From: a virus
Reading direction: 5' to 3' (one strand)
IMG/VR virus record: IMGVR_UViG_3300048914_000065
Length of the DNA: 45,081 nt
The notes beneath the pieces were generated by a model. The model saw nothing but the letters and a program-made list of their open reading frames with translations, searched no databases and was not told the DNA's origin. Below are positions 1,330-44,081 of the stretch, one piece after another; position 1 is the first letter of the stretch, and the number at the start of each line of letters is the position of its first letter. The translations under genes were made by a program, and so were the position numbers.

Positions 1330-4191
1330 CTAGATTTGAATTCCGTTAACGTCGACTACGCCGTTTATAAAATCGGCGTCATTATCGTAATATCGGTCGT
1401 CGTAGTTAATCGCCTTGATGTTCGAAGTAAAGTTGTCGTTCGGTGTTTTTTCGCTAACGAGGAACGCGTTTTGCCGAGCAGAGTTGTTGCCCACAATAAC
1501 ATAGGTCGCGCGGGCATACAAATCTTCGCCCAGGGCTAGCGCTGCGCGTGGCGGGTTCGCAAGTACGATCTTGTTAGATGCGCTTGCGCTGTTAATCTGG
1601 ATCGATTCGACAGTGCCGTCTACGTGCTGAATAAACACCGTGTACGTGACGCCAGTTTCGAACGTGACATCGTGCGACAATTCAAGCTCAAGGCCGTTTT
1701 GTCCGATAACGTCACCGTCTTGTGTGCTGGGGCGCGTGTTATCGGCGACTAGGATTCGATCTTGCGGAATAATCAAATCGGCTTCTTGTGTCGCTTCGAA
1801 TTCGACAACTTGGTTAGAGTAGCGAATCTTGTTCCAATCGCGCCACGCGTGAAACCAAGCCTGTAGCCTATTTCGGATTCCGACGCTTTCTATCTTCTTC
1901 GGATTTACAGCGCTTCGATCTTCAGGCAAATAGAGCGTTACAAGTGCGTCGTCTTCAGGGTCGACGTATTGAAATTCAACGCCGTCGTTGTCGTTATTAT
2001 TGCCGAAGTTAATTGTTCGCGTTTCACTACCGGGTAGCTTGTTCCTATGGTTGAATAGTAAGACGCTATCTTGTGTAGCCTTTTCGAATGCCAGCTTTAT
2101 GACATTGCCGCGACGATACGCTTGACAGAAAACAGCGTCGGCTATTGAGATTGCCATTTCTTCGAAGGACACGTTAGTGTTGTCAAACGTGTGGTTAAAC
2201 TTGCTTGCTATGGAAGTTCCGAAATATGATTCAACGGCGGCGATGGATTCGTAGAAGTTAGTTATGTCGATTTCGTCAACGCTACGATTACCAATATACG
2301 GGTCAAGGCAAACAGCCCGCAGAATGTCAGCAGCGTTACTTGTGGGCATAACTGCAAACGAGCCATCTTCCTGTCTAGATTCGATTTTTCGACTAGCCAA
2401 TACGTTAAGCTTGCGTTCTTTCAGTGTCAAAGCACCGCTTGTTACGAACGTCACACTTTGGATTGTCGTAACGTTTCCGAAATGGGTTTGATCTACGTCA
2501 GAAACTGCGTATAGGTCACGCCATTTGACCTCGTCGACAACCGAACCTTTGAATGACAAATCTGATGCCGTTACGCGTCGTGCCCGTACGCTGTATCGGC
2601 CCGCCAATGCGGTTACAACTTTTACACTAATTGCACGCGTCGTACGATAGATTGCGGAACCTTGCACAACGGCTTGCCACGATTCGACTGAACCTCGTGA
2701 CGAACCGTCGGCGTTGATCGGGGTCGCTTCAAGTTCTAGTGTTACATCGAATTGTTGTTGATTTTGCCCATCGTCCTTGTAAAGACCGTTCAACGCTACG
2801 AAGTTCGCATAAATCTTTTGGCGATTCAAACCGTCAATTATAAAAGGTCCGACCCATTTATCGCCGCTAGTCGTTACGGTCGGACTCATGTACGACGATG
2901 CGGTTAAACCTGTCCAGCTAGAACTCACACTGGCCGGGTCAGACAGATGAATCGTCGAATCGTCTAGTGAAACGATAAGATACGATCCGTTAAAATCATA
3001 GGTAGGTGTACCTGTCGAAATTTTTAGACTTGCGGTCGCTTGCAATTCTCCGTCGGCGAGCGCCCAATCAGAATTTATATTAGACGGGTCGATTAGAGTG
3101 ATTCGATGCAAGTACAAACTGCCTAACATTTCTGTTTCGACGGAGTCGATTTTATAAGTACCGGAAAGGCTATACGCCTGATACGAGCTAAAATTGAATT
3201 CGTCGTACACAAAAAACTTAGCATACACGATTGTAATTTCGGCACCGGCCACATAATTCGAATCGATTGCACTCACGGCGAATTCGAAATATCCGTCAGA
3301 ATAGGCGGTTATTTCTTGTGTTTGCGTAACGTACGATGAATACAACGACGCATTCTGAACGTGCAGCAGGTCGCCCGATGAAAACTTGTCACCGAATTTT
3401 AACCCCGAATCAGGTTTAATTTCGATGACGTTAGGTGCGACGAATCTTATGTTATTGTCACCTACGACACTTTGCCCGTTAGGCGAGCGCAGGACTTGAC
3501 CGTTTACGGAGTTTGAGCGCTTAACGTTTAGTACGGGTTCACTTATGTCAGAACCGATCCGCAATTGTGGCGAATCGCCGGAATTAGGCGAAGTATTAGG
3601 TCCGTAAACTTCTACCGACGCGCCGTCGATGTCGGCGATCAATGTCGTGTCGTCGCGCACGTCAGACACTTCGTATAATCCTCGGCCGACGCACATATAC
3701 GCGTATTCAACTTCGATATGGTTGATAAACAGGCTGTAAGGTACGGCCAGTAAATCAGGCGTTGAACGAACTGTTCCGTAAATGTCTGGAATGCGCGCTA
3801 AGGGTCGAGGTTTGTTGGTGCGTTCAGCCAGATCGTTATTAGGGCTTTGCTCTTGTGTGTTTCGAAGTGCCGTATTCGGAATCTTCGCTTTAAGCACAAC
3901 TGCTACAACGACCACTGCGACGATAAGCGCTACAACGTACCAGATTGCAGAGACGTAACCGGGATAGACTACAACATAGAATGGCCCATCGAGTTCATTT
4001 AAACGAGCAATTCCAGCATCGTCGCGAGGCGTTACGTCGGTTGATTCTGAAACGTTGCCGTTGTAGATGCGCGCCGTATCGGGCCACACGTCAAATTGGC
4101 TTTGCAAAAATTCGCATACATTCGCGGTTTCATGCGTAGTCCAACTTTGGGGCTCGAATGCGTTTTTTGCTAATACGATAGTTTTCAGCAT
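1330..4191 (-). CDS. Central tail fibre / host-specificity protein (lambda gpJ-like) fused to an N-terminal gpI-like module and a hydrophobic segment.
   Basis: 953 aa, and the last large gene in a TMP-M-L-K-(I)-J order. Residues 1-75 form a small module ending FYVVVYPG, followed by AIWYVVALIVAVVVVAVVL and then RPLARIPDIYGTVR, which resembles the start of J-type tip proteins. Confidence 0.7.
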   Translation of the reverse strand: MLKTIVLAKNAFEPQSWTTHETANVCEFLQSQFDVWPDTARIYNGNVSESTDVTPRDDAGIARLNELDGPFYVVVYPGYVSAIWYVVALIVAVVVVAVVLKAKIPNTALRNTQEQSPNNDLAERTNKPRPLARIPDIYGTVRSTPDLLAVPYSLFINHIEVEYAYMCVGRGLYEVSDVRDDTTLIADIDGASVEVYGPNTSPNSGDSPQLRIGSDISEPVLNVKRSNSVNGQVLRSPNGQSVVGDNNIRFVAPNVIEIKPDSGLKFGDKFSSGDLLHVQNASLYSSYVTQTQEITAYSDGYFEFAVSAIDSNYVAGAEITIVYAKFFVYDEFNFSSYQAYSLSGTYKIDSVETEMLGSLYLHRITLIDPSNINSDWALADGELQATASLKISTGTPTYDFNGSYLIVSLDDSTIHLSDPASVSSSWTGLTASSYMSPTVTTSGDKWVGPFIIDGLNRQKIYANFVALNGLYKDDGQNQQQFDVTLELEATPINADGSSRGSVESWQAVVQGSAIYRTTRAISVKVVTALAGRYSVRARRVTASDLSFKGSVVDEVKWRDLYAVSDVDQTHFGNVTTIQSVTFVTSGALTLKERKLNVLASRKIESRQEDGSFAVMPTSNAADILRAVCLDPYIGNRSVDEIDITNFYESIAAVESYFGTSIASKFNHTFDNTNVSFEEMAISIADAVFCQAYRRGNVIKLAFEKATQDSVLLFNHRNKLPGSETRTINFGNNNDNDGVEFQYVDPEDDALVTLYLPEDRSAVNPKKIESVGIRNRLQAWFHAWRDWNKIRYSNQVVEFEATQEADLIIPQDRILVADNTRPSTQDGDVIGQNGLELELSHDVTFETGVTYTVFIQHVDGTVESIQINSASASNKIVLANPPRAALALGEDLYARATYVIVGNNSARQNAFLVSEKTPNDNFTSNIKAINYDDRYYDNDADFINGVVDVNGIQI

Positions 4192-35864: not shown

Positions 35865-36545
35865 ATGAACGTAACTAAAGAACTGAAACCGGCGTCATCG
35901 TTCGCGCAGCAATTCGGCGTCAAAGCCTTGCTGTTCGGCGGGCCGGGTATGGGTAAAACTCCGTTGCTGAACACGGCCCCGCGCCCGGTTCTGTTGGCGG
36001 TCGAACCCGGCTTGCTGTCGATGCGGGGTTCGAATATCCCGACGTTCGAAGCGTTCAACAACTACGCACGAATCGAAGGCTTCTTCGAATGGCTGTTCAA
36101 CAGCGCCGAAGCAAAGCAATTCGATACCGTCGGCGTTGACAGTATTTCGCAAATCGCGGAAATTGTCTTGGCCGAACGGCTGGCGAAGAACAAAGACCCG
36201 CGCAAGGCGTACGGCGAAATGTCGCAAAAGTTGATGGAATACGCAAACGGCCTGTACTTCATGCAAAACAAGCATGCGTATTTGATCGCAAAGCAAACCA
36301 GTGCCGACGAAAACGGCGCGATTCGCAAGAAACCGTATTTCCCAGGTCAAGACCTGAACGTAAAAATTCCGCACCTATACGACGAAATCTTGCATTTGGG
36401 TAAAGCGATGATCCCAAGCGTCGGCGAACAAATCGCTATTCGAACAAAAGAAACGTTCGAAATCATGGCCCGCGACCGTTCCGGCAAGTGCGCCGAACTG
36501 GAACCGCCGAACTTGGGCCAACTGTTCCAAAAGATCATGCAGTAA
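35865..36545 (+). CDS. RecA-fold ATPase (AAA_24 / Sak4-like single-strand annealing or recombination protein).
   Basis: 226 aa with Walker A LLFGGPGMGKTP and a Walker B-like VGVDSIS. It is followed by the DUF669-type SSB. Confidence 0.65.
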   Translation: MNVTKELKPASSFAQQFGVKALLFGGPGMGKTPLLNTAPRPVLLAVEPGLLSMRGSNIPTFEAFNNYARIEGFFEWLFNSAEAKQFDTVGVDSISQIAEIVLAERLAKNKDPRKAYGEMSQKLMEYANGLYFMQNKHAYLIAKQTSADENGAIRKKPYFPGQDLNVKIPHLYDEILHLGKAMIPSVGEQIAIRTKETFEIMARDRSGKCAELEPPNLGQLFQKIMQ

Positions 36546-36601: not shown

Positions 36602-37345
36602 ATGCCAGCACTTCAACAACCGTTCAACTCCTCGCAGTTCGACCCCGCGACCGGCTTTTCGCAACTGCCCGTCGGCGAACATCCCGTTATTATCGTCGCT
36701 TCATCCATCGACGGCAACAAGAACCAGACCGGCGGATATGTCAAACTGAGCGTCAAAGCCATTGACGGCCCGGCAAACGGCCTGTCGATGGATTGGCGTT
36801 TGAATTTGTACAACGCATCGCAGAAAGCCGCTGAAATCGCGCATCGTCAACTGTCGGCGATTTGCCATGCTGTTGGTGTTCCGGCGTTCCAGCAAACTGA
36901 AGAACTGCACGGCAAACCGTTCGTCGTCATCGTCCAGCCGCAAAAGGAAGATGACAAGTACAACGAAATTTCCGGCTGCAAGTATATCGACGGTTCGCAG
37001 ATCAAGCCGGGGCAATACGGCGTCGCGGGCGGCGGTCAAGCCCAGGGCCAGCAGGGCGGCAACTGGGGCGGTCAACCGCAAGGCCAACAGCAACCGCAAG
37101 CCCAGCAGCCGCAAGGTGCATGGGGCGGTGCGCAGGCCCAGGGCCAGCCACAACAGCCGCCCCAGCAACAACCGCAGCAGCCCGCCCAAGGTCAACCGGC
37201 TTGGGGTGGCTCGCCCCAGGGTCAACAGCAGCCGCAGCAGCAAACGGGCGGTCAAGCCTGGGGCGGCGCACCCGCAGCCAACAACGGCGCCGGCCAGTGG
37301 CAACAGGGTCAACAGCAGCCCGGCAACAAACCGGCCTGGGGCTAA
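36602..37345 (+). CDS. ssDNA-binding protein (DUF669-type) with a roughly 110-aa Gln/Gly/Pro-rich tail carrying five WG(G) repeats.
   Basis: 247 aa. It has a globular N-terminal region of about 135 aa, followed by GGGQAQGQQGGNWGGQPQGQQQPQ...AWGGA...AWGGS...AWGGA...KPAWG. The gene is GC-rich. Confidence 0.6.
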   Translation: MPALQQPFNSSQFDPATGFSQLPVGEHPVIIVASSIDGNKNQTGGYVKLSVKAIDGPANGLSMDWRLNLYNASQKAAEIAHRQLSAICHAVGVPAFQQTEELHGKPFVVIVQPQKEDDKYNEISGCKYIDGSQIKPGQYGVAGGGQAQGQQGGNWGGQPQGQQQPQAQQPQGAWGGAQAQGQPQQPPQQQPQQPAQGQPAWGGSPQGQQQPQQQTGGQAWGGAPAANNGAGQWQQGQQQPGNKPAWG

Positions 37346-37413: not shown

Positions 37414-37929
37414 ATGCTTCGCAATCCAAAACGAATTAGTAGCTTACTGCCGAACCCTTCGAACTGCGATAACTGCGGTTCAATGAACATTCGTTACACG
37501 ACCAACGACGTAATTTACGGTCGCATATTTGGCGAGTGGCCCCAATGCTGGTTTTGCGATGATTGCCGGGCGTCGGTCGGTTGTCACCCCCAAACTACGC
37601 ACCCGCTTGGGCGAATGGCCGACCGAGCAACAAAGAAGCTTCGTAACGATGCGCACAAAGTTTTTGACGTGCTTTGGTCGTCTGGTCTTATGACACGCGA
37701 CCGTGCTTACGTTTGGCTTGCCAATGAACTTAACATAGAAGCAGAACAAGCCCATATCGCATTACTTAACAAGGAACAGTTAAAACAGGTAATCGAGGCA
37801 AGCAAAGTATTCTTTGACGAACGCCAAAACATCATCGACCGTCGGAAAGCAAAACGTAATGAAAAACACCGAAACGAAAACAACCGAGAACGCCAACGAA
37901 TCGCCCTGCGAAAGCGCACCGGAAAGTAA
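37414..37929 (+). CDS. Zinc-finger protein, DUF3268-like.
   Basis: 171 aa. The pattern CDNCGS...WFCDDCRASVGCHP..THPLG...LRNDAHKVFDVLW...RDRAYVWLA is followed by a basic tail. Confidence 0.5.
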   Translation: MLRNPKRISSLLPNPSNCDNCGSMNIRYTTNDVIYGRIFGEWPQCWFCDDCRASVGCHPQTTHPLGRMADRATKKLRNDAHKVFDVLWSSGLMTRDRAYVWLANELNIEAEQAHIALLNKEQLKQVIEASKVFFDERQNIIDRRKAKRNEKHRNENNRERQRIALRKRTGK

Positions 37930-38857
37930 AGGCGTTCCGCCTGTAGACCTATCGGCCCCAGGCGTTAAAAAGGCCGTCGCCCAACGTATCAAAGCCGACA
38001 TCGATAAGTATTGCGAAGTGACGTACGACGACGGGCACCGTACGCATTTGGGTGCGTCGAAGATTGGCGAAGAATGCGCCCGCGCGCTTTGGTACGGATT
38101 TCGATGGGTAAGCGCCGAAAAATTCAATGGTCGTATGCAACGCCTGTTTCAACGCGGACACCGTGAAGAACCTTACGTGTTCGAACACTTGCGCGGCGCC
38201 GGATTCCAAATCTTCGAATTCGACGAATCGTTGCCGCTGAAAGACGGAAAGCCGCAGCAATACCGATTCAGTGCTGCATGTGGGCATTTCGGCGGTTCAC
38301 TCGACGCGGTTTGCAAGCTGCCTGCGCATTACAATATTGCCGAACCAATGCTCATTAGCATCAAAACAAAAGCCACCGGAACAGGGTTTAATGAACTGTC
38401 AAGTGACGGTGTAAAGGTTGTAGCGCCTGTGCACTACGCCCAAGAATGCACTTACGGCCGCGCGTTCGGTTTGAAATACGCATTGTATGTGTATAGGAAT
38501 AAGAACGACGACGACCAACATATAGAAGTTGTCGAACTGGATCATAAACACGCCGAACAGCTGGAAATGAAAGCCGAACGTATCATTTTCAGCCGCGAAG
38601 CGCCGCCGCGTATTTCCGAAAACCCGGCGTTTAAAACTTGCAAGTTCTGTTGGTTCGGCAATGAAAAAACCGGCATTTGTTTTAAAAAGCCTGGGCATAC
38701 GCCAATCGACCGAAACTGCCGTAGTTGCAAAAATGCTGTTCCAGGCGAAAACAAAACTTGGAATTGCGATATTCATAGCCGAACTAACGGCCCGTTGCCG
38801 CCCAAAGGATTAGAAAATATCGCTGCGCAGTGTGCTGATTACGATCCCATCGTATGA
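37814..38857 (+). CDS. PD-(D/E)XK nuclease, Cas4/RecB-like, with a candidate Fe-S Cys cluster.
   Basis: 347 aa. It carries LGASKIGEECARALWYGFRW near the N-terminus and CKFCWF...GIC near the C-terminus. The start is uncertain: the ORF overlaps the upstream gene by 116 nt, and ATG 37858 is an alternative. Confidence 0.55.
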   Translation: MTNAKTSSTVGKQNVMKNTETKTTENANESPCESAPESKGVPPVDLSAPGVKKAVAQRIKADIDKYCEVTYDDGHRTHLGASKIGEECARALWYGFRWVSAEKFNGRMQRLFQRGHREEPYVFEHLRGAGFQIFEFDESLPLKDGKPQQYRFSAACGHFGGSLDAVCKLPAHYNIAEPMLISIKTKATGTGFNELSSDGVKVVAPVHYAQECTYGRAFGLKYALYVYRNKNDDDQHIEVVELDHKHAEQLEMKAERIIFSREAPPRISENPAFKTCKFCWFGNEKTGICFKKPGHTPIDRNCRSCKNAVPGENKTWNCDIHSRTNGPLPPKGLENIAAQCADYDPIV

Positions 38858-40569
38858 AACTTCGGTATTATCAAGAGGGGGCGATACAAAGCGTGTTCGA
38901 TTACCATTACGAACACGGCGTAGAAGCCGGTAACACGATTGTCGCTATGCCCACAGGTACGGGCAAGTCGCCGACAATCGGCGGGCTGTTGATCCGGCTG
39001 TATAAAGAATGGCCGTCGTTGCGCGTGTTGAACTTGACGCACGTAAAAGAGTTGATCGCGCAGAACGTCGAAAAGCTGCAAATGATGTGGCCGACGGCCC
39101 CAGTTGGTATCTATTCGGCGGGCCTGGGTCAACGCGACACAATGTTGCCGATTCTATTCGGCGGCGTGGCAAGTATCGTAAAAAGCGAAGCTATTCTGTC
39201 GCAACATTGGGACATAGGAATTATTGACGAATGCCATCTGTTAAGCCCTGAAGAAGATTCAATGTATCAAGTAATTGTTGCGGCCGTCATGGCACGCAAC
39301 CCGCGCTTTAAGCTTATCGGCTTTACCGCAACGCCGTATCGACTGAAACAAGGATTGATTACCGACGGCGGTATTTTCAGCGATATTTGTTGCGACCTCA
39401 CCGGCGTTGATGCGTTCAATCGATTCATCAACGAAGCGTATTTGTCGCCGTTGATCGCTAAGAAAACCGATGTTCAAATCGAAGCGTCGGAATTAAAAAT
39501 TGTCGGCGGCGAGTATGCAGCAAAGCCGCTTGAAGCTGAAATCGACAGAATCATGGTTCCGGGGTTACGCGAAGTATGCGACCTGGGCCAGAACCGTCAT
39601 AAATGGTTGATCTTTACGGCCGGCGTTGCAACTGCTGAACGCTGCGCCGAAATCTTGAATAGCTGGGGCGTTAGCGCGATGGCTGTTCACTCCAAGCTGA
39701 AGGGCTCCGAAAACGATAAGCGAATTGCCGCGCATAAGGCCGGGCAGTTTCGCGCGCTTATCAACGTCGGCAAACTGACAACCGGATACGACGACCCAGG
39801 AATAGACCTGATCGCAGTATTTCGCAAGACGACTTCGCCGGGCCTTTGGGTTCAAATTCTAGGACGTGGAACGCGACCGCTGTATATGCCTGGGTTTGAT
39901 CTTGAAACCGTCGAAGGCCGATTCGAAGCCATGTACGCAGGGCCGAAGCAAAACACATTGGTTCTTGACTTCGCAGCGAACACCGAAGAATTAGGCCCGA
40001 TCAACGACGTTCGCATACCGCGCAAGAAGGGCAAAGAAACCGGCGATGCACCTGTACGCATTTGCACGAAAGAAGCCCTTAAAGTAAATGCGACGCGCGA
40101 AAAATGGGAAATGGAAGATGGATGCGGCGCGTACAATCATGCAAGTGTTCGTAGTTGCTGCAATTGCGGGCGCGAATTTCTGTTTCAAACGCACATTCTA
40201 GCAAGCGCGACCGATGCGGAACTGATCAAAGGTAACGAAGCTGTCGTAGAATACTTCAACGTTGACCGAGTGTTTTATAGCTCGCATGAAACTTCTAAGG
40301 GCCGAAGCCTTAAAGTAACGTACGCGTGCGGTATGCGTAGTTTCCGCGAATACGTAAGCATCGAATACACCGACCCGTCGGCACACTTCGCACGCAAACG
40401 CGGTCGCGACTGGTTCCGCCAACGATTCATTAGCGACGGCGAAGATGTGACGCCACCCGAAACCGTAGACGAAGCATTGCAGTACGTAAGCCGACTCAAA
40501 GAACCGAAACGCTTACGCGTTCGTACCGATCAACAATACCCTGAAATATTAGGCCATGAGTTCTTCTAA
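38854..40569 (+). CDS. Superfamily-2 DEAD/DEAH-box DNA helicase with a C-terminal zinc-ribbon region.
   Basis: 571 aa with Walker A AMPTGTGKS, IIDECH, GFTATP, helicase-C TTGYDDPGIDL...ILGRGTR, and CGAYNHASVRSCCNCG. Confidence 0.85.
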   Translation: MKLRYYQEGAIQSVFDYHYEHGVEAGNTIVAMPTGTGKSPTIGGLLIRLYKEWPSLRVLNLTHVKELIAQNVEKLQMMWPTAPVGIYSAGLGQRDTMLPILFGGVASIVKSEAILSQHWDIGIIDECHLLSPEEDSMYQVIVAAVMARNPRFKLIGFTATPYRLKQGLITDGGIFSDICCDLTGVDAFNRFINEAYLSPLIAKKTDVQIEASELKIVGGEYAAKPLEAEIDRIMVPGLREVCDLGQNRHKWLIFTAGVATAERCAEILNSWGVSAMAVHSKLKGSENDKRIAAHKAGQFRALINVGKLTTGYDDPGIDLIAVFRKTTSPGLWVQILGRGTRPLYMPGFDLETVEGRFEAMYAGPKQNTLVLDFAANTEELGPINDVRIPRKKGKETGDAPVRICTKEALKVNATREKWEMEDGCGAYNHASVRSCCNCGREFLFQTHILASATDAELIKGNEAVVEYFNVDRVFYSSHETSKGRSLKVTYACGMRSFREYVSIEYTDPSAHFARKRGRDWFRQRFISDGEDVTPPETVDEALQYVSRLKEPKRLRVRTDQQYPEILGHEFF

Positions 40570-40792
40570 AGACGACAAATTAGACCGTTATAGACCATTA
40601 GCGGCGTTCGCAATCCTTCGTAGCATTAAAACCGTCGATCCTAACGAACTTGTGAAGTCTTGCATTTCTTGCGACTTTTTCGTAGAATCAAAGGAAGCTT
40701 GCAAAAAATCCGAAATGCAACGACCGCCCGCCCGCGTAATCGCATTCGGCTGCAAAGCGTATGAATGCATTGACGATGACATACCATTCTAG
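40556..40792 (+). CDS. Small Cys-containing protein ending in the bacterial SSB C-terminal tip, DDDIPF.
   Basis: 78 aa. Cys pattern: CISC...C...CKAYEC. The last six codons, gac gat gac ata cca ttc (40772-40789), give DDDIPF followed by a stop. Confidence 0.6.
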   Translation: MSSSKDDKLDRYRPLAAFAILRSIKTVDPNELVKSCISCDFFVESKEACKKSEMQRPPARVIAFGCKAYECIDDDIPF

Positions 40793-40800
40793 GGCGAAAC

Positions 40801-41808
40801 ATGGCAAATAATAGTAAACGTGCGCGTCGTAAAACTGACGAACAATCAAACCTTGTCGCCGCCCTAAAGTTCGTCGCAGCGGCCCAGGGAGACAGCAAAG
40901 CTGAAACCCAGCATACACACGTAATGCTTTCGAAGCAATGGGCGACGGCAACGAACCCGATTTTCGCAATGGGGCATCGTATCGCCGACGACATTGACGC
41001 GTGCCCACATACGGTCCGACTCATTGACGCGCTGTCGAAGTGCGGCCAAACGCTATCGATTACGACCCTTGATAGCGGTAAGCTTTCTATCAAATCCGAC
41101 AAGTTCCGCGCGCTGGTTCCTTGCGTCCCTGGGGCGCTTATGCCGCCCGCCCTGCCCGATACCCCTTGCGCTACCCTGAACGACGCGCTGCGGGCCGGAT
41201 TCGCGGCCGTGGCCGACGTTGCCGGGCCTGTCCAGGGTCGGGAATGGGCAAACGCGGTCTTGCTGCAAGCCGGGTCGGTCATTGCGTGCGATGGAATTTG
41301 CGCCGTTGAATACTGGCACGGCATCGACTTGCCGCCCGGCCTTATCGTACCGAAAGCCGCAGTTGCCGCGATTCTGAAAACCGGCAAGCCGCTTGCGCAC
41401 TTCGGATTTTCCCAAAATACCGCAACGTTCTATTTCGACGACGAATCATGGTTGAAAACTCAACTGTTGACCGTCGAATATCCTAACGTAGGTCGAATTC
41501 TTAACGTAAGTTCGAACCCTTGGCCGTTGCCGCCTGGGTTCTTCGACGCGCTAAAGTCGGTCGCATCGTTTAGCGAAACCGGACAGGTATTCTTTAATCA
41601 AAACGTATTAGCGTCGCACCCTAACGGCGAAGAAGGCGCAATGTACGAAATCGAAGGCATACCGCCGAATAAAGCGTACAATAGCAAATACCTGTTGGCG
41701 TTCGAAGGCTTGGCCGACAGATTCGATTTCAACCCGCACGACCCCATAGGCAATTGCGTTTTCTTCGGAGATAATTTGCGCGGCGTTATTGCAGCAATCA
41801 GGCGTTAA
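40801..41808 (+). CDS. DnaN-like beta sliding clamp.
   Basis: 335 aa. By eye it aligns along its whole length with E. coli DnaN: KLSIKSDKFRALVPCVP (cf. RSGRSRFSLSTLP), IACDGICAV (cf. VATDGHRLAV), LIVPKAAV (cf. VIVPRKGV), TVEYPNVGRIL (cf. GRFPDYRRVLP), AYNSKYLL (cf. GFNVSYVL). Confidence 0.65.
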   Translation: MANNSKRARRKTDEQSNLVAALKFVAAAQGDSKAETQHTHVMLSKQWATATNPIFAMGHRIADDIDACPHTVRLIDALSKCGQTLSITTLDSGKLSIKSDKFRALVPCVPGALMPPALPDTPCATLNDALRAGFAAVADVAGPVQGREWANAVLLQAGSVIACDGICAVEYWHGIDLPPGLIVPKAAVAAILKTGKPLAHFGFSQNTATFYFDDESWLKTQLLTVEYPNVGRILNVSSNPWPLPPGFFDALKSVASFSETGQVFFNQNVLASHPNGEEGAMYEIEGIPPNKAYNSKYLLAFEGLADRFDFNPHDPIGNCVFFGDNLRGVIAAIRR

Positions 41809-41809
41809 G

Positions 41810-41995
41810 ATGAGCAAGCAAAGCAACGCGGCGGCGCAACTGTTCGCACTAATCGACGAACTTAGAACGACCGCCGAAGCTTCCCAGGAAATGAACCGCG
41901 TTTACCGCGATTACATACGGTCGCAAGCCTTTCGTATCGAAGCATTAGAAAAAGAGTTGGAACAACTGCGCGGGACTAAACCGAATGTTCTTTGA
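41810..41995 (+). CDS. Small coiled-coil protein.
   Basis: 61 aa from ATG 41810, one nt after the clamp gene stop. The track start 41789 lies inside the clamp gene. Confidence 0.4.
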   Translation: MSKQSNAAAQLFALIDELRTTAEASQEMNRVYRDYIRSQAFRIEALEKELEQLRGTKPNVL

Positions 41996-44081
41996 AGACG
42001 AAGACACAATAGTTTATGAAGAAGGCGAAGAAGGCCCAGCCCTTCGGGAAAAGCCGAAGCGTAAACTAATCGCGGCGCTTGAACGAGTTTTGCGCCCGTT
42101 ACACTTCTTTACCGACGCCGAACTAATGACGGCGGCGCACCGCGAAACGTTAGTGCTCGATACCGAGTGTTACCCTAACTTTTGGCTTTGTTCGTTTAAG
42201 TCAATCGAAAGCGGGCGCGCGGTATCGGTCGAACTGTCGGCGGATTGCGACTTAGACAGGCCGAAACTTGAATGGATTCTTTGGCATTTCCGAACGGTCG
42301 GATTCAACAGCCGTCGTTATGACTTGCTAATGATTTCGCTTGCGTTGAAGGGTTTGCCCGCCTGGGAACTGCATCAAGTTTCAACGGCAATCGTCAAAGG
42401 TACGGAACGGCTATCTGACATTTACGACAGGTACAACATCGCTACGCCGCCGTTTAATCATATCGACGTTTTCGACGTAGCACCGTTGCCCGACATTTCG
42501 TTGAAAACGTATTCAGGTCGCCTGCACGCAAAGCGCATGCAAGACTTGCCGTACGATCCGACGGAGCCTCTAACGCGCGAGCAGGCGCACCACACGCGAT
42601 ATTACTGCTTCAACGACATCGATAACACCGGGTTGATATTCAACAGTCTATCAAAACAACTTGAACTGCGCGAAGCCCTTGGCCGTGAATACGACCAAGA
42701 CTTACGAAGCAAGTCGGATGCTCAGATCGCCGAAGCCGTGTTCGGTGCGGAAATCGCTAAGATCACCGGGCGCTATCCAAAGAAGCCGAAGATTGAACCG
42801 GGCACGACGTTTCGCTACAAGATGCCGTCATATATCAGGTTCCAAACGCCAATCTTACAAGCGTTGGCCGATGCAATCGCGCAACAGGATTTCGAAATAG
42901 ACAAAGCAGGGTATCTGTTGATGCCGCCGACGGTCGGCCCGTTCGTCGTAATTGGCAAAGGAAACAAGCCAATCAAAGGCCCAGGTAAGGGCAATATCAA
43001 GTTGAACCTTTGGGGCAAGCCGTACAGTGTGGGCATGGGCGGGTTGCATTCGAACGAATCGTCTATTGCCCACATTAGCGACGCCGACACGCTGGTTATT
43101 GACGATGACGTGGAATCATATTACCCGCGCATCATCTTGAATCAACGATTGTTTCCGCCGCACTTGACCGATGCATTCTTGACGGTTTATGAAACATTCG
43201 TTAGCCGTCGTATCGCGGGTAAGAAATCCGGCGATAAAGTCGTAGCCGATTCGCTAAAGATCGTTATTAACGGATCGTTCGGCAAGTTAGGTTCGAAGTA
43301 TTCAATTTTGTATTCGCCCGACTTGCTATTGCAAGTTACGCTAACCGGGCAACTCTCATTGTTAATGCTTATTGAAATGATGGAAACCGCAGGGATTCCA
43401 GTTATTTCGGCGAATACTGACGGCGTTGTTAAGAAATGCCCTAAACATCTTTACGCCGTGCACGAAGCAATTCTGCGCGAATGGGAACGAATTACCGACT
43501 TCAAGACAGAACAAACGCAGTATAGGGCCGTGTATAGTCGTGACGTTAACAATTACATCGCGATTAAAAAGAACTTCGATAAAGATCGTAAGGTATGGCT
43601 TGATGAATTCCCGGTCGGGACCAAACTAGATAAAATGACGAAGGGTAAAGGGGCGTTCGGCAATCCATGGCTCGGCGGCGATTCTGTCGAGATTATGAAG
43701 AAGAACCCCGAATTTACGATTTGCGTTGAAGCTGTAACGCGGTTTTTAAACGATCGCACGCCAATCGAAACGACGATTCGGGAATGCCGCGATATCACGA
43801 AATTCGTTGCAGTTCGCAACGTAAAGGGCGGGGCGGAAAAGAATGATGTTTACTTGGGCAAGGTCGTACGATGGTATTACGCTGAAGGTGAGAAAACACC
43901 AATCTTATCGGTGCTGTATGAAAGTACGGTCCCGAAATCGACAGGCGGAAAGCCTTTAATGGATTTGCCGGATGAATTTCCAGCCGATGTAGACTACGAA
44001 CGATATATCGAAGAAGCTAGCGAAATGTTATTCGATATCGGTTACGCGATTCGACCAAATACGCAAATCAAGTTCTTCTAA
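41985..44081 (+). CDS. DNA polymerase, family-B-like, with an N-terminal 3'-5' exonuclease domain.
   Basis: 698 aa. Exonuclease motifs: VLDTEC (ExoI), GFNSRRYDLLM (ExoII), YYCFNDID (ExoIII). Polymerase motifs: DDDVESYYPRII (DxxSxYP type), KIVINGSFGKLG (KxxxNSxYG type), SANTDGV (DTD position). The C-terminus is QIKFF. Confidence 0.8.
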   Translation: MFFEDEDTIVYEEGEEGPALREKPKRKLIAALERVLRPLHFFTDAELMTAAHRETLVLDTECYPNFWLCSFKSIESGRAVSVELSADCDLDRPKLEWILWHFRTVGFNSRRYDLLMISLALKGLPAWELHQVSTAIVKGTERLSDIYDRYNIATPPFNHIDVFDVAPLPDISLKTYSGRLHAKRMQDLPYDPTEPLTREQAHHTRYYCFNDIDNTGLIFNSLSKQLELREALGREYDQDLRSKSDAQIAEAVFGAEIAKITGRYPKKPKIEPGTTFRYKMPSYIRFQTPILQALADAIAQQDFEIDKAGYLLMPPTVGPFVVIGKGNKPIKGPGKGNIKLNLWGKPYSVGMGGLHSNESSIAHISDADTLVIDDDVESYYPRIILNQRLFPPHLTDAFLTVYETFVSRRIAGKKSGDKVVADSLKIVINGSFGKLGSKYSILYSPDLLLQVTLTGQLSLLMLIEMMETAGIPVISANTDGVVKKCPKHLYAVHEAILREWERITDFKTEQTQYRAVYSRDVNNYIAIKKNFDKDRKVWLDEFPVGTKLDKMTKGKGAFGNPWLGGDSVEIMKKNPEFTICVEAVTRFLNDRTPIETTIRECRDITKFVAVRNVKGGAEKNDVYLGKVVRWYYAEGEKTPILSVLYESTVPKSTGGKPLMDLPDEFPADVDYERYIEEASEMLFDIGYAIRPNTQIKFF

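Follow-up and report, generated by a model that had tools for sequence, protein, structure and literature searches.

The 45,081-nt viral DNA record IMGVR_UViG_3300048914_000065 (the window, by which we mean this whole stretch, and which looks like a complete phage genome of ~45 kb) encodes a 78-aa protein that is not an SSB (single-stranded DNA-binding protein) but ends in DDDIPF, the C-terminal docking tip of bacterial SSB (SSB-Ct). Analysis of this mini-protein and its relatives revealed that the tip is strongly conserved, that it can reside on the mini-protein, on the C-terminus of a RadD-like helicase or on that of a sliding clamp, and that the SSB of the same phage module lacks it. We propose, with a probability of about one half, that the mini-protein is a detachable SSB-type docking tail of the helicase and replisome, most plausibly recruiting host proteins that possess SSB-tip pockets.

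The mini-protein gene (40556-40792, + strand) is an open reading frame (ORF) with an ATG start, and its complete product is MSSSKDDKLDRYRPLAAFAILRSIKTVDPNELVKSCISCDFFVESKEACKKSEMQRPPARVIAFGCKAYECIDDDIPF, followed by a stop codon. The protein ends ...KAYECIDDDIPF and then TAG, placing the tip, D73-D-D-I-P-F78, at 40772-40789 (+) with the stop codon directly after it. These last six residues are identical to those of the E. coli SSB-Ct (MDFDDDIPF) and, as in SSB, they lie at the extreme C-terminus after an acidic run. A sequence-only reading of this DNA had pointed to a DDDIPF tip on a small ORF between the helicase and clamp genes and to the lack of an oligonucleotide-binding (OB) fold in its product. 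Both statements held: the protein had no match in Pfam (E <= 1) or NCBIfam, its AlphaFold2 (AF2) model, built from the family alignment, shows a helix at the N-terminus, a beta-hairpin and a further helix, the latter two both short, and no relative was found in the PDB.

Conservation across the family indicates that the tip is not a chance feature of one sequence. The homologues do not lack it: 251 of the 256 collected members end in [ILVPT]-P-[FY], with 212 IPF, 25 VPF, 6 LPF and 4 PPF ends among them, so that the tail is, as first read, a conserved copy of the bacterial SSB tip on a non-SSB protein. At least two acidic residues occur at positions −7 to −4 in 225 of these 251. Among first-set members ending in PF or PY (n=149), Pro occupies −2 in all 149, Phe occupies −1 in 147 and Ile, Val or Leu occupies −3 in 144, while −4 and −5 are mostly Asp or Glu. 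What an SSB-Ct pocket recognises is the terminal Phe, including its carboxylate, plus upstream Asp residues (PMC10238739); the conserved Pro, Phe, aliphatic residue and upstream acidic residues of the mini-protein tip are therefore the pattern that such pockets read. After the cysteine core, the tip is the most constrained part of the mini-protein and is under strong selection.

The length of the tether is more variable, with usually 8-13 residues between the last cysteine and the C-terminus and linkers of 32-81 residues in some members. Unlike SSB, in which the tip follows a long disordered linker, the window protein carries its tip on a four-cysteine knob with a tether of only ~12 residues. 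In contrast, the long-linker members end ...GFDDMDDDIPF, ...TSFDDLDDDIPF or ...SGFDDFDDDIPF, which are full copies of the E. coli-type MDFDDDIPF, reproducing the upstream DF and the Pro-rich linker of SSB as well. Two such members, at 9965-10291 on contig L053 (108 aa, ending FDDFDDDIPF) and at 9908-10255 on contig L073 (115 aa, ending NYDDDIPF), have no RadD-like helicase nearby on their contigs, and the family is therefore not strictly tied to the helicase. The L053 member keeps an internal ...DAVPF where the tip usually sits.

To follow the tip beyond the mini-protein, the C-termini of 13,969 ORFs (30 aa or longer, in all six frames) from 96 related loci were scanned for [DEN]-x(0-2)-[ILVP]-P-F. 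The sequence-only reading had suggested a survey of related phages for small tip-ending ORFs, and the 98 matches included 76 mini-protein tips. The others comprised 11 clamp C-termini (...DD[IV]PF, for example ...SRTGFDNLEDDIPF and ...SKRGFDDMEDDIPF), 8 C-termini of RadD-like helicases (for example ...TYDDDDIPF) and 3 matches elsewhere, one of which is a divergent mini-protein, gp30 of Serratia phage Rovert (...WLWEDVPF).

The distribution of these carriers among complete modules, defined as the 73 loci with a complete helicase and a complete clamp, provides the main argument. The tip was found on the mini-protein only in 56 of the 73. A tip-less mini-protein was accompanied by a clamp tip in seven (L012, the L064-70 clade and L078), and a PPF-ended mini-protein was accompanied by DDDIPF (or DDEIPF) on the helicase in five. 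Both the mini-protein and the clamp carried the tip in three modules, whereas the mini-protein was missing from Pseudomonas phage PaMx42, which has a clamp tip (1/73), and from Stenotrophomonas phage BUCT548, which has a helicase tip (1/73). No module was devoid of a tip (0/73). Because all 73 complete modules have at least one tip, we conclude that the tip is a requirement of the whole module and that its carrier is interchangeable.

The same substitution of one carrier for another was seen in two loci with no clamp in range, where L076 combines a tip-less mini-protein with a helicase ending ...EEVDIPF, and where the E. coli phage SeppeHuegi (Bas24), which lacks the mini-protein, encodes a helicase of 658 aa whose acidic linker ends DDPDYVPF. 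Helicase-borne tips are frequent: the closest database homologues of the BUCT548 helicase end in xPF in 105 of 120 cases, mostly as ...DDDIPF after a linker of ~50 residues. With helicases clustered at 60% identity (35 clusters), cluster states in which the mini-protein was missing or tip-less were compensated by a helicase or clamp tip in 4/4 cases, compared to 5/32 otherwise (p ~0.002 by a hand calculation, C(9,4)/C(36,4)).

The gene most closely associated with the mini-protein encodes a 571-aa superfamily 2 (SF2) helicase (38854-40569, +), whose stop region overlaps the mini-protein start by 14 nt (40556-40569, +). Sequence and model comparisons identify this helicase as a predicted RadD homologue. 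A phmmer search matched it to the PDB structures of RadD (6JDE, 7R7J) at E 1.7e-40, and Foldseek on the AF2 model of a helicase homologue retrieved RadD at E 1e-36, the next best match being at E 1e-15. The NCBIfam RadD model scored 215 bits over residues 1-341 only, which is below its 720-bit equivalog cut-off.

Synteny supports the pairing of the two genes. In the seven isolate phages examined first (Sphingomonas Kimi, Xanthomonas Suba, Erwinia AH03, Vibrio VpKK5, Rhizobium RHEph04, Salmonella SE1_KM and Shewanella S0112), the mini-protein gene directly follows and overlaps the helicase gene. An apparent helicase fusion in Suba was rejected, the match being a separate unannotated ORF that overlaps the helicase stop. 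Across 88 loci, the order was Sak4, SSB, Cas4-exonuclease, helicase, mini-protein and then clamp and polymerase. The helicase lay directly upstream of the mini-protein in ~80 of the 83 loci with upstream DNA, in a survey that covered these seven phages and 80 IMG/VR contigs, and the distance between the two genes was mostly −1 to −38 nt, an overlap that suggests translational coupling. Thus, of the neighborhood described by the sequence-only reading, the helicase proved to be the conserved partner gene whereas adjacency to the clamp is not conserved: in isolate phages, queuosine-pathway genes often separate the clamp from the mini-protein by several kilobases. Knobs without a tip also persist downstream of the helicase, suggesting that the knob has a helicase-linked role that is independent of the tip.

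Several unusual helicases and arrangements were also observed. A 976-aa homologue of the tip-bearing helicase (P0261) contains homing-endonuclease and LAGLIDADG domains (PF05204, PF05203 and PF14528), an insertion that looks like an intein. Four helicase C-termini (P0284, P0286, P0305 and P0312) end ...EEEYGF or ...GEAYGF instead of DDDIPF, which may be a variant acidic-aromatic tip. On contig L037, two family members flank the helicase, an upstream member of 121 aa (1188-1553) ending NYDIPF and a divergent downstream member of 74 aa (3141-3365) ending QEVPF.

The mini-protein belongs to a phage family of unknown function that is already catalogued as phrog_23504, the hidden Markov model of which matched residues 33-78 (profile positions 32-73 of 73, E 1.7e-9). 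The sequence-only reading knew of no described family of tip-only proteins, and a full-text literature search found no description of a tip-only protein, of an SSB-Ct mimic in phages or of a helicase or clamp carrying an SSB-Ct. The family is large. A phmmer search of 1.84 billion cluster representatives (50% identity) identified 238 mini-protein relatives, and a profile search of 5.8 billion sequences identified at least 795 mini-protein clusters, none with a Pfam domain or a meaningful name.

Within a 124-member alignment, C36, C39, C49, P57, P58, C66 and P77 are invariant and F42, E47, R56, A59, I62, A63 and F78 are at least 90% conserved, giving the family consensus SC-x2-C-x2-F-x-E-x2-E-x-C-x5-RPPARVIAFGC-x2-Y-x-D-x-D-x-IPF. 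The core formed by C36, C39, C49 and C66, with R56-P-P-A-R-V-I-A-F-G-C66, maps to 40661-40753 (+). The cysteine pattern originally noted, C36-x2-C39...C49...C66-x4-C71, is present in the window protein, but C71 is not invariant, unlike the other four. We presume from this pattern that the four-cysteine core is a zinc knob. The AF2 model has a mean predicted local distance difference test (pLDDT) score of 83, with values of 88-94 over the cysteine core. A Foldseek search with this model, one of the checks proposed with the sequence-only reading, failed to reveal known relatives: there were 0 matches in the PDB, known zinc-ribbon folds included, and matches in BFVD were to uncharacterised phage proteins only, one of them from Escherichia phage Halfdan. 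A profile search of PDB sequences with the family also returned nothing significant.

In 185,579 species genomes of bacteria and archaea, the family was matched only once, on a 1.5-kb metagenome-bin contig, so that it appears to be phage-specific and not prophage-borne or cellular. The isolate hosts listed for family members are all Proteobacteria except for one record labelled Listeria phage. Members include the mini-protein of Halfdan (AXC34307.1), a Lokivirus with host MG1655, which ends ...NGCAQHDFDIPF, and those of Rosemountvirus phages such as CF2, JEP7 and swi3. Some mini-proteins have a ~45-aa module, (W/L/F)xHPESxxYF...DG(L)(C/V)xxVT...(H)E, fused to the N-terminus (P0003, P0012, P0060, P0075, P0145 and P0149; also L089 7140-7760 and L090 3965-4369). 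This module also occurs in the C-terminal extension of a clamp, just before the tip (L022 5641-6861). Within the related loci it was found in tip-carrying proteins only, and it is absent from the window.

The SSB encoded by the same module does not supply a tip. The window SSB is a DUF669-type protein (36602-37345, +; PF05037, E 1.7e-11; phrog_6015) with a non-acidic, Gln/Gly/Pro-rich tail that begins at ~37000, contains five (G/A/Q)W(G/Q) repeats and ends in KPAWG (37328-37342), without an acidic tip. This tail is typical: P-x-W-[GA] lies 1-7 residues from the C-terminus in 65 of the 66 SSBs that co-occur with a mini-protein, the tails contain 1-6 Trp residues and are not acidic, and none has a terminal aromatic residue. 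The SSB of Halfdan, for example, ends QPAWGQPR. DUF669 SSBs are otherwise described with acidic tails (PMC4889955), and that of phage HK620 ends NDYPPF, a tail needed for Sak4 loading and recombineering (PMC5928155). The P-x-W-[GA] tail looks like a second, phage-specific docking motif.

We also considered the cysteine knob as the receptor of this Trp tail. SeppeHuegi and BUCT548, which have no mini-protein, keep the P-x-W tail on their SSBs, and the knob is therefore unlikely to be its receptor. Enc34 SSB was discarded as a comparison for the DUF669 SSB, being a DUF2815 protein. The PaMx42 SSB (L092 3640-4383) differs in that its annotated tail turns from Gln/Gly/Trp-rich to Arg/Ala/Ser-rich and ends ...NAARRADSRAAGSSNRRAAHRLAVPHLGAHAKTN; either a frameshift in the database entry or genuine divergence may account for this switch.

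The remaining genes of the module suggest which function the tip might serve. The next gene after the mini-protein encodes a beta-type sliding clamp (40801-41808, +; phrog_947, DNA polymerase processivity factor, E 2.3e-59), the profile of which matches PDB 8DT6 'Beta sliding clamp' at E 1.5e-4. The Family-B-like DNA polymerase (41985-44081, +; phrog_1252, E 4e-198), which also shows weak matches to E. coli Pol II, ends in QIKFF (44064-44078), a beta-clamp-binding-type motif. Similar Q-x-x-[LF]-F-like polymerase ends recur in relatives (KQQKFF, KQVSFF, KQGGLF, PTLF and similar), and their resemblance to the bacterial beta-clamp-binding motif fits a beta-type clamp as partner. A scan of window proteins against PHROGs revealed no clamp loader; it covered the replication module and the larger structural-region ORFs, with the small ORFs of the 25-31 kb region covered only partly. 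The host clamp loader reaches SSB-coated DNA through binding of its chi subunit to the SSB-Ct.

Some clamps in related loci have long C-terminal extensions. The clamp ORFs of L014, L016, L031 and L043 are 450-500 aa long, and their extensions have GWG-type ends (...NPGWG, ...NVGWGG and ...SEGWGQADA) reminiscent of the Trp tail on the phage SSB. This motif, too, may thus be able to move between carriers.

In the mechanism that we favor, the 78-aa protein would act as a small adaptor, in which a four-cysteine, probably zinc-binding knob bears the tip within about 10-12 residues. The knob would hold the mini-protein on the RadD-like helicase encoded upstream, and the tip would supply the replication and recombination module with the SSB-type docking peptide that the phage DUF669 SSB lacks. 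There it would plug into the SSB-tip pockets of other proteins, host SSB-interacting proteins being the most plausible targets. The mini-protein can be viewed as the detachable tail of the helicase, with the knob as its anchor, because relatives show a fission/fusion pattern of helicase-linker-tip versus helicase plus knob-tip. This view is further supported by the strict gene coupling, by the retention of tip-less knobs beside the helicase and by the loss of the knob where the tip is fused to the helicase.

Three points favor host receptors. In phages of alpha-, beta- and gamma-proteobacteria alike, the motif has remained at the host consensus, where host consensus refers to the E. coli-type SSB tip, which may not be that of each host; the tip is also found on long flexible linkers and on clamps; and the module has an obvious clamp-loader gap. 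Chi, a subunit of the host clamp loader, would be the prime candidate receptor, since the phage encodes a clamp of the beta type and a polymerase that would bind it, yet no loader was found among the proteins scanned, and a phage SSB without a tip could not itself recruit the host loader. A more elaborate version, in which the jobs of SSB are split in this lytic-phage group such that the Trp-tailed DUF669 SSB coats single-stranded DNA (ssDNA) while the movable tip hijacks the host SSB-interactome, captures the clamp loader via chi and loads the phage clamp without a phage loader, is offered only tentatively, and we would lean against it in its entirety.

Several points weigh against this mechanism. 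The identity of the receptor is deduced from gene content and from general knowledge of how chi binds the SSB tip, and the contact between knob and helicase from gene order and the patterns of fusion and fission. The probable zinc binding is suggested by the four invariant cysteines, whereas the Foldseek search gave no match to a known zinc ribbon. In addition, some members have weakly acidic tails, such as FDYKVPF in Rosemountvirus phages and WQIDIPF in VpKK5. Finally, given that the SSB-Ct is bound by E. coli RadD, of which the helicase is a homologue, a purely phage-internal circuit can also be envisaged.

Such a circuit would involve no host protein: the tip would enter a RadD-type pocket on the phage's own helicase and stimulate or otherwise control the ATPase, much as host SSB does with E. 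coli RadD. It is the strongest competitor, and we consider it unlikely but worth serious attention. In E. coli RadD, the SSB-Ct pocket is framed by R21, R49 and R145 together with hydrophobic residues, and the tip stimulates the ATPase (PMC10238739). Comparison of 82 phage helicases showed that the hydrophobic pocket positions are conserved and that R145 is Lys or Arg in 71 of the 82; R21 and R49, however, are not conserved, and there was no signal of co-loss between tip-less mini-proteins and helicase pocket residues, which are unchanged in lineages with a tip-less mini-protein. The translational coupling suggested for the two genes and the inability of the phage SSB to supply a tip would both fit an activator of this kind, but tip-less knobs are retained beside the helicase, and recruitment of a third party would better suit the clamp tips and the long, flexible linkers. 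A helicase with a naturally fused tip (P0257) gave an AF2 model with a mean pLDDT of 89.9, in which the final 16 residues scored 47-49; the tip was thus without confident docking in cis, which we regard as weak evidence against this alternative.

These considerations qualify the adaptor role that the sequence-only reading had put forward. Its core is strongly supported by the presence of the same tip on the helicase or clamp in relatives, always somewhere in the module, and by its absence from the phage SSB. The assignment of the receptor to the host is less secure, since the helicase is a homologue of RadD, which itself binds the SSB tip, and the receptor could therefore be a phage protein.

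It is also improbable, in our view, that the tip serves as a handle for a recombination mediator, recruiting phage Sak4 to DNA structures bound by the helicase or the clamp. The window does encode a Sak4-like annealase (35865-36545, +; phrog_124, E 4e-43) in the same module as the DUF669 SSB, the tail of the HK620 SSB is required for Sak4 loading and recombineering (PMC5928155), and the clade with PPF-ended mini-proteins and a DDDIPF helicase hints at two receptors. Nevertheless, Sak4 was not detected (E <= 1e-5) in several tip-carrier loci that reach the SSB gene (for example L014, L031, L039 and L043), and the tip is much closer to the host consensus DDDIPF than to NDYPPF.

The decoy role raised alongside the adaptor in the sequence-only reading is disfavored and seems to us more improbable still. 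Mini-protein in free form would draw the repair and restart proteins of the host away from host SSB, and host DNA metabolism or defence would shut down. A near-perfect copy of the host SSB-Ct on a small soluble protein, with just one short metagenome-bin contig found among the bacterial genomes searched, would suit a weapon of a lytic phage. In many relatives, however, the same tip is covalently attached to the helicase or clamp in place of the mini-protein, an exchange that would not be expected of a decoy acting by titration. The apparent translational coupling to the helicase suggests stoichiometric and not bulk expression, and the invariant cysteine core argues for a specific anchoring function. 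The acidic tails of T7 gp2.5 and E. coli SSB compete with ssDNA for the binding groove, and the phage SSB has no acidic tail of its own, so the mini-protein tail might act as an ssDNA mimic in the DUF669 SSB groove that helps the helicase or clamp displace SSB, but the strict conservation of I-P-F-COOH points to an SSB-Ct-type pocket and not to general acidity, making this the least probable of the alternatives and one that we largely discount.

Comparison with known systems places the detachable docking tail between several precedents. The partner helicase resembles E. coli RadD (YejH), an experimentally shown SSB-Ct binder (PMC10238739), but the tip is supplied by the mini-protein or by the C-terminus of the helicase itself instead of SSB, the pocket is only partly conserved and the phage protein scores below the RadD equivalog cut-off. 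As in HK620, a Sak4 and DUF669 SSB module is associated with an F-terminated tail that could be a protein-recruitment handle (PMC5928155), whereas the SSB of the present phages ends in P-x-W-[GA], the F-tail having passed from SSB to other proteins. A short acidic C-terminal peptide is likewise found in T7 gp2.5, where it organises the replisome via the polymerase and helicase (as cited in PMC5686142); tails of the gp2.5 type are on the phage SSB and have diverged from the host motif, in contrast to the host-consensus motif on non-SSB carriers seen here. The peptide and its pockets are well known; for the carriers, the portability of the tip and an SSB without the tip, the literature searched shows no precedent. 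T4 UvsW.1 offers a parallel in gene arrangement, as a small protein encoded immediately downstream of the SF2 recombination helicase UvsW. To our knowledge UvsW.1 has no SSB-like tip, and the mini-protein has no structural match in the PDB by Foldseek.

No promoter-like or terminator-like site was found between the helicase, mini-protein, clamp and polymerase genes. A 68-aa ORF between the clamp and polymerase genes (41789-41995) had weak family matches only, and small ORFs also lie between the helicase and clamp genes of relatives, among them Kimi, AH03 and Halfdan. Upstream, the ORF for a DUF3268 zinc-finger protein (37414-37929) overlaps the listed TTG start of a Cas4-type exonuclease ORF (37814-38857) by more than 100 nt; the PHROG match of the exonuclease begins only at residue 48, and its true start is therefore probably further downstream. 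A megablast search for a near-identical phage returned a 45-nt match only, indicating no close isolate relative. Gram-positive phages with a related polymerase were set aside as a comparison for whether the tail tracks the host, their modules being different; in Enterococcus phage phiSHEF4, a 236-aa ORF ends DDLPF and is a candidate SSB only.

The SSB tip, the central docking peptide of bacterial genome maintenance, has so far been treated as a property of SSB. Our results indicate that, within one widespread phage module, this peptide is strongly selected on three carriers other than SSB and is absent from the SSB of that module, where the P-x-W-G/A tail suggests a parallel, phage-specific docking code. 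If the tip hijacks the host via chi, the mini-protein would be the first described tip-only adaptor, and its relatives would include the first sliding clamps and helicases with an SSB-Ct. With a host protein as receptor, the tip would be a compact viral plug into the host SSB-interactome and would explain clamp loading in phages that have a beta-type clamp but no loader. If the receptor is instead the phage RadD-like helicase, the system would represent a natural in-trans SSB-Ct activation of RadD and could clarify the role of RadD. Tractable models in E. coli K-12 are available in Halfdan, the Rosemountvirus phages and SeppeHuegi, and, either way, these findings provide a testable role for a family of at least 795 hypothetical protein clusters.

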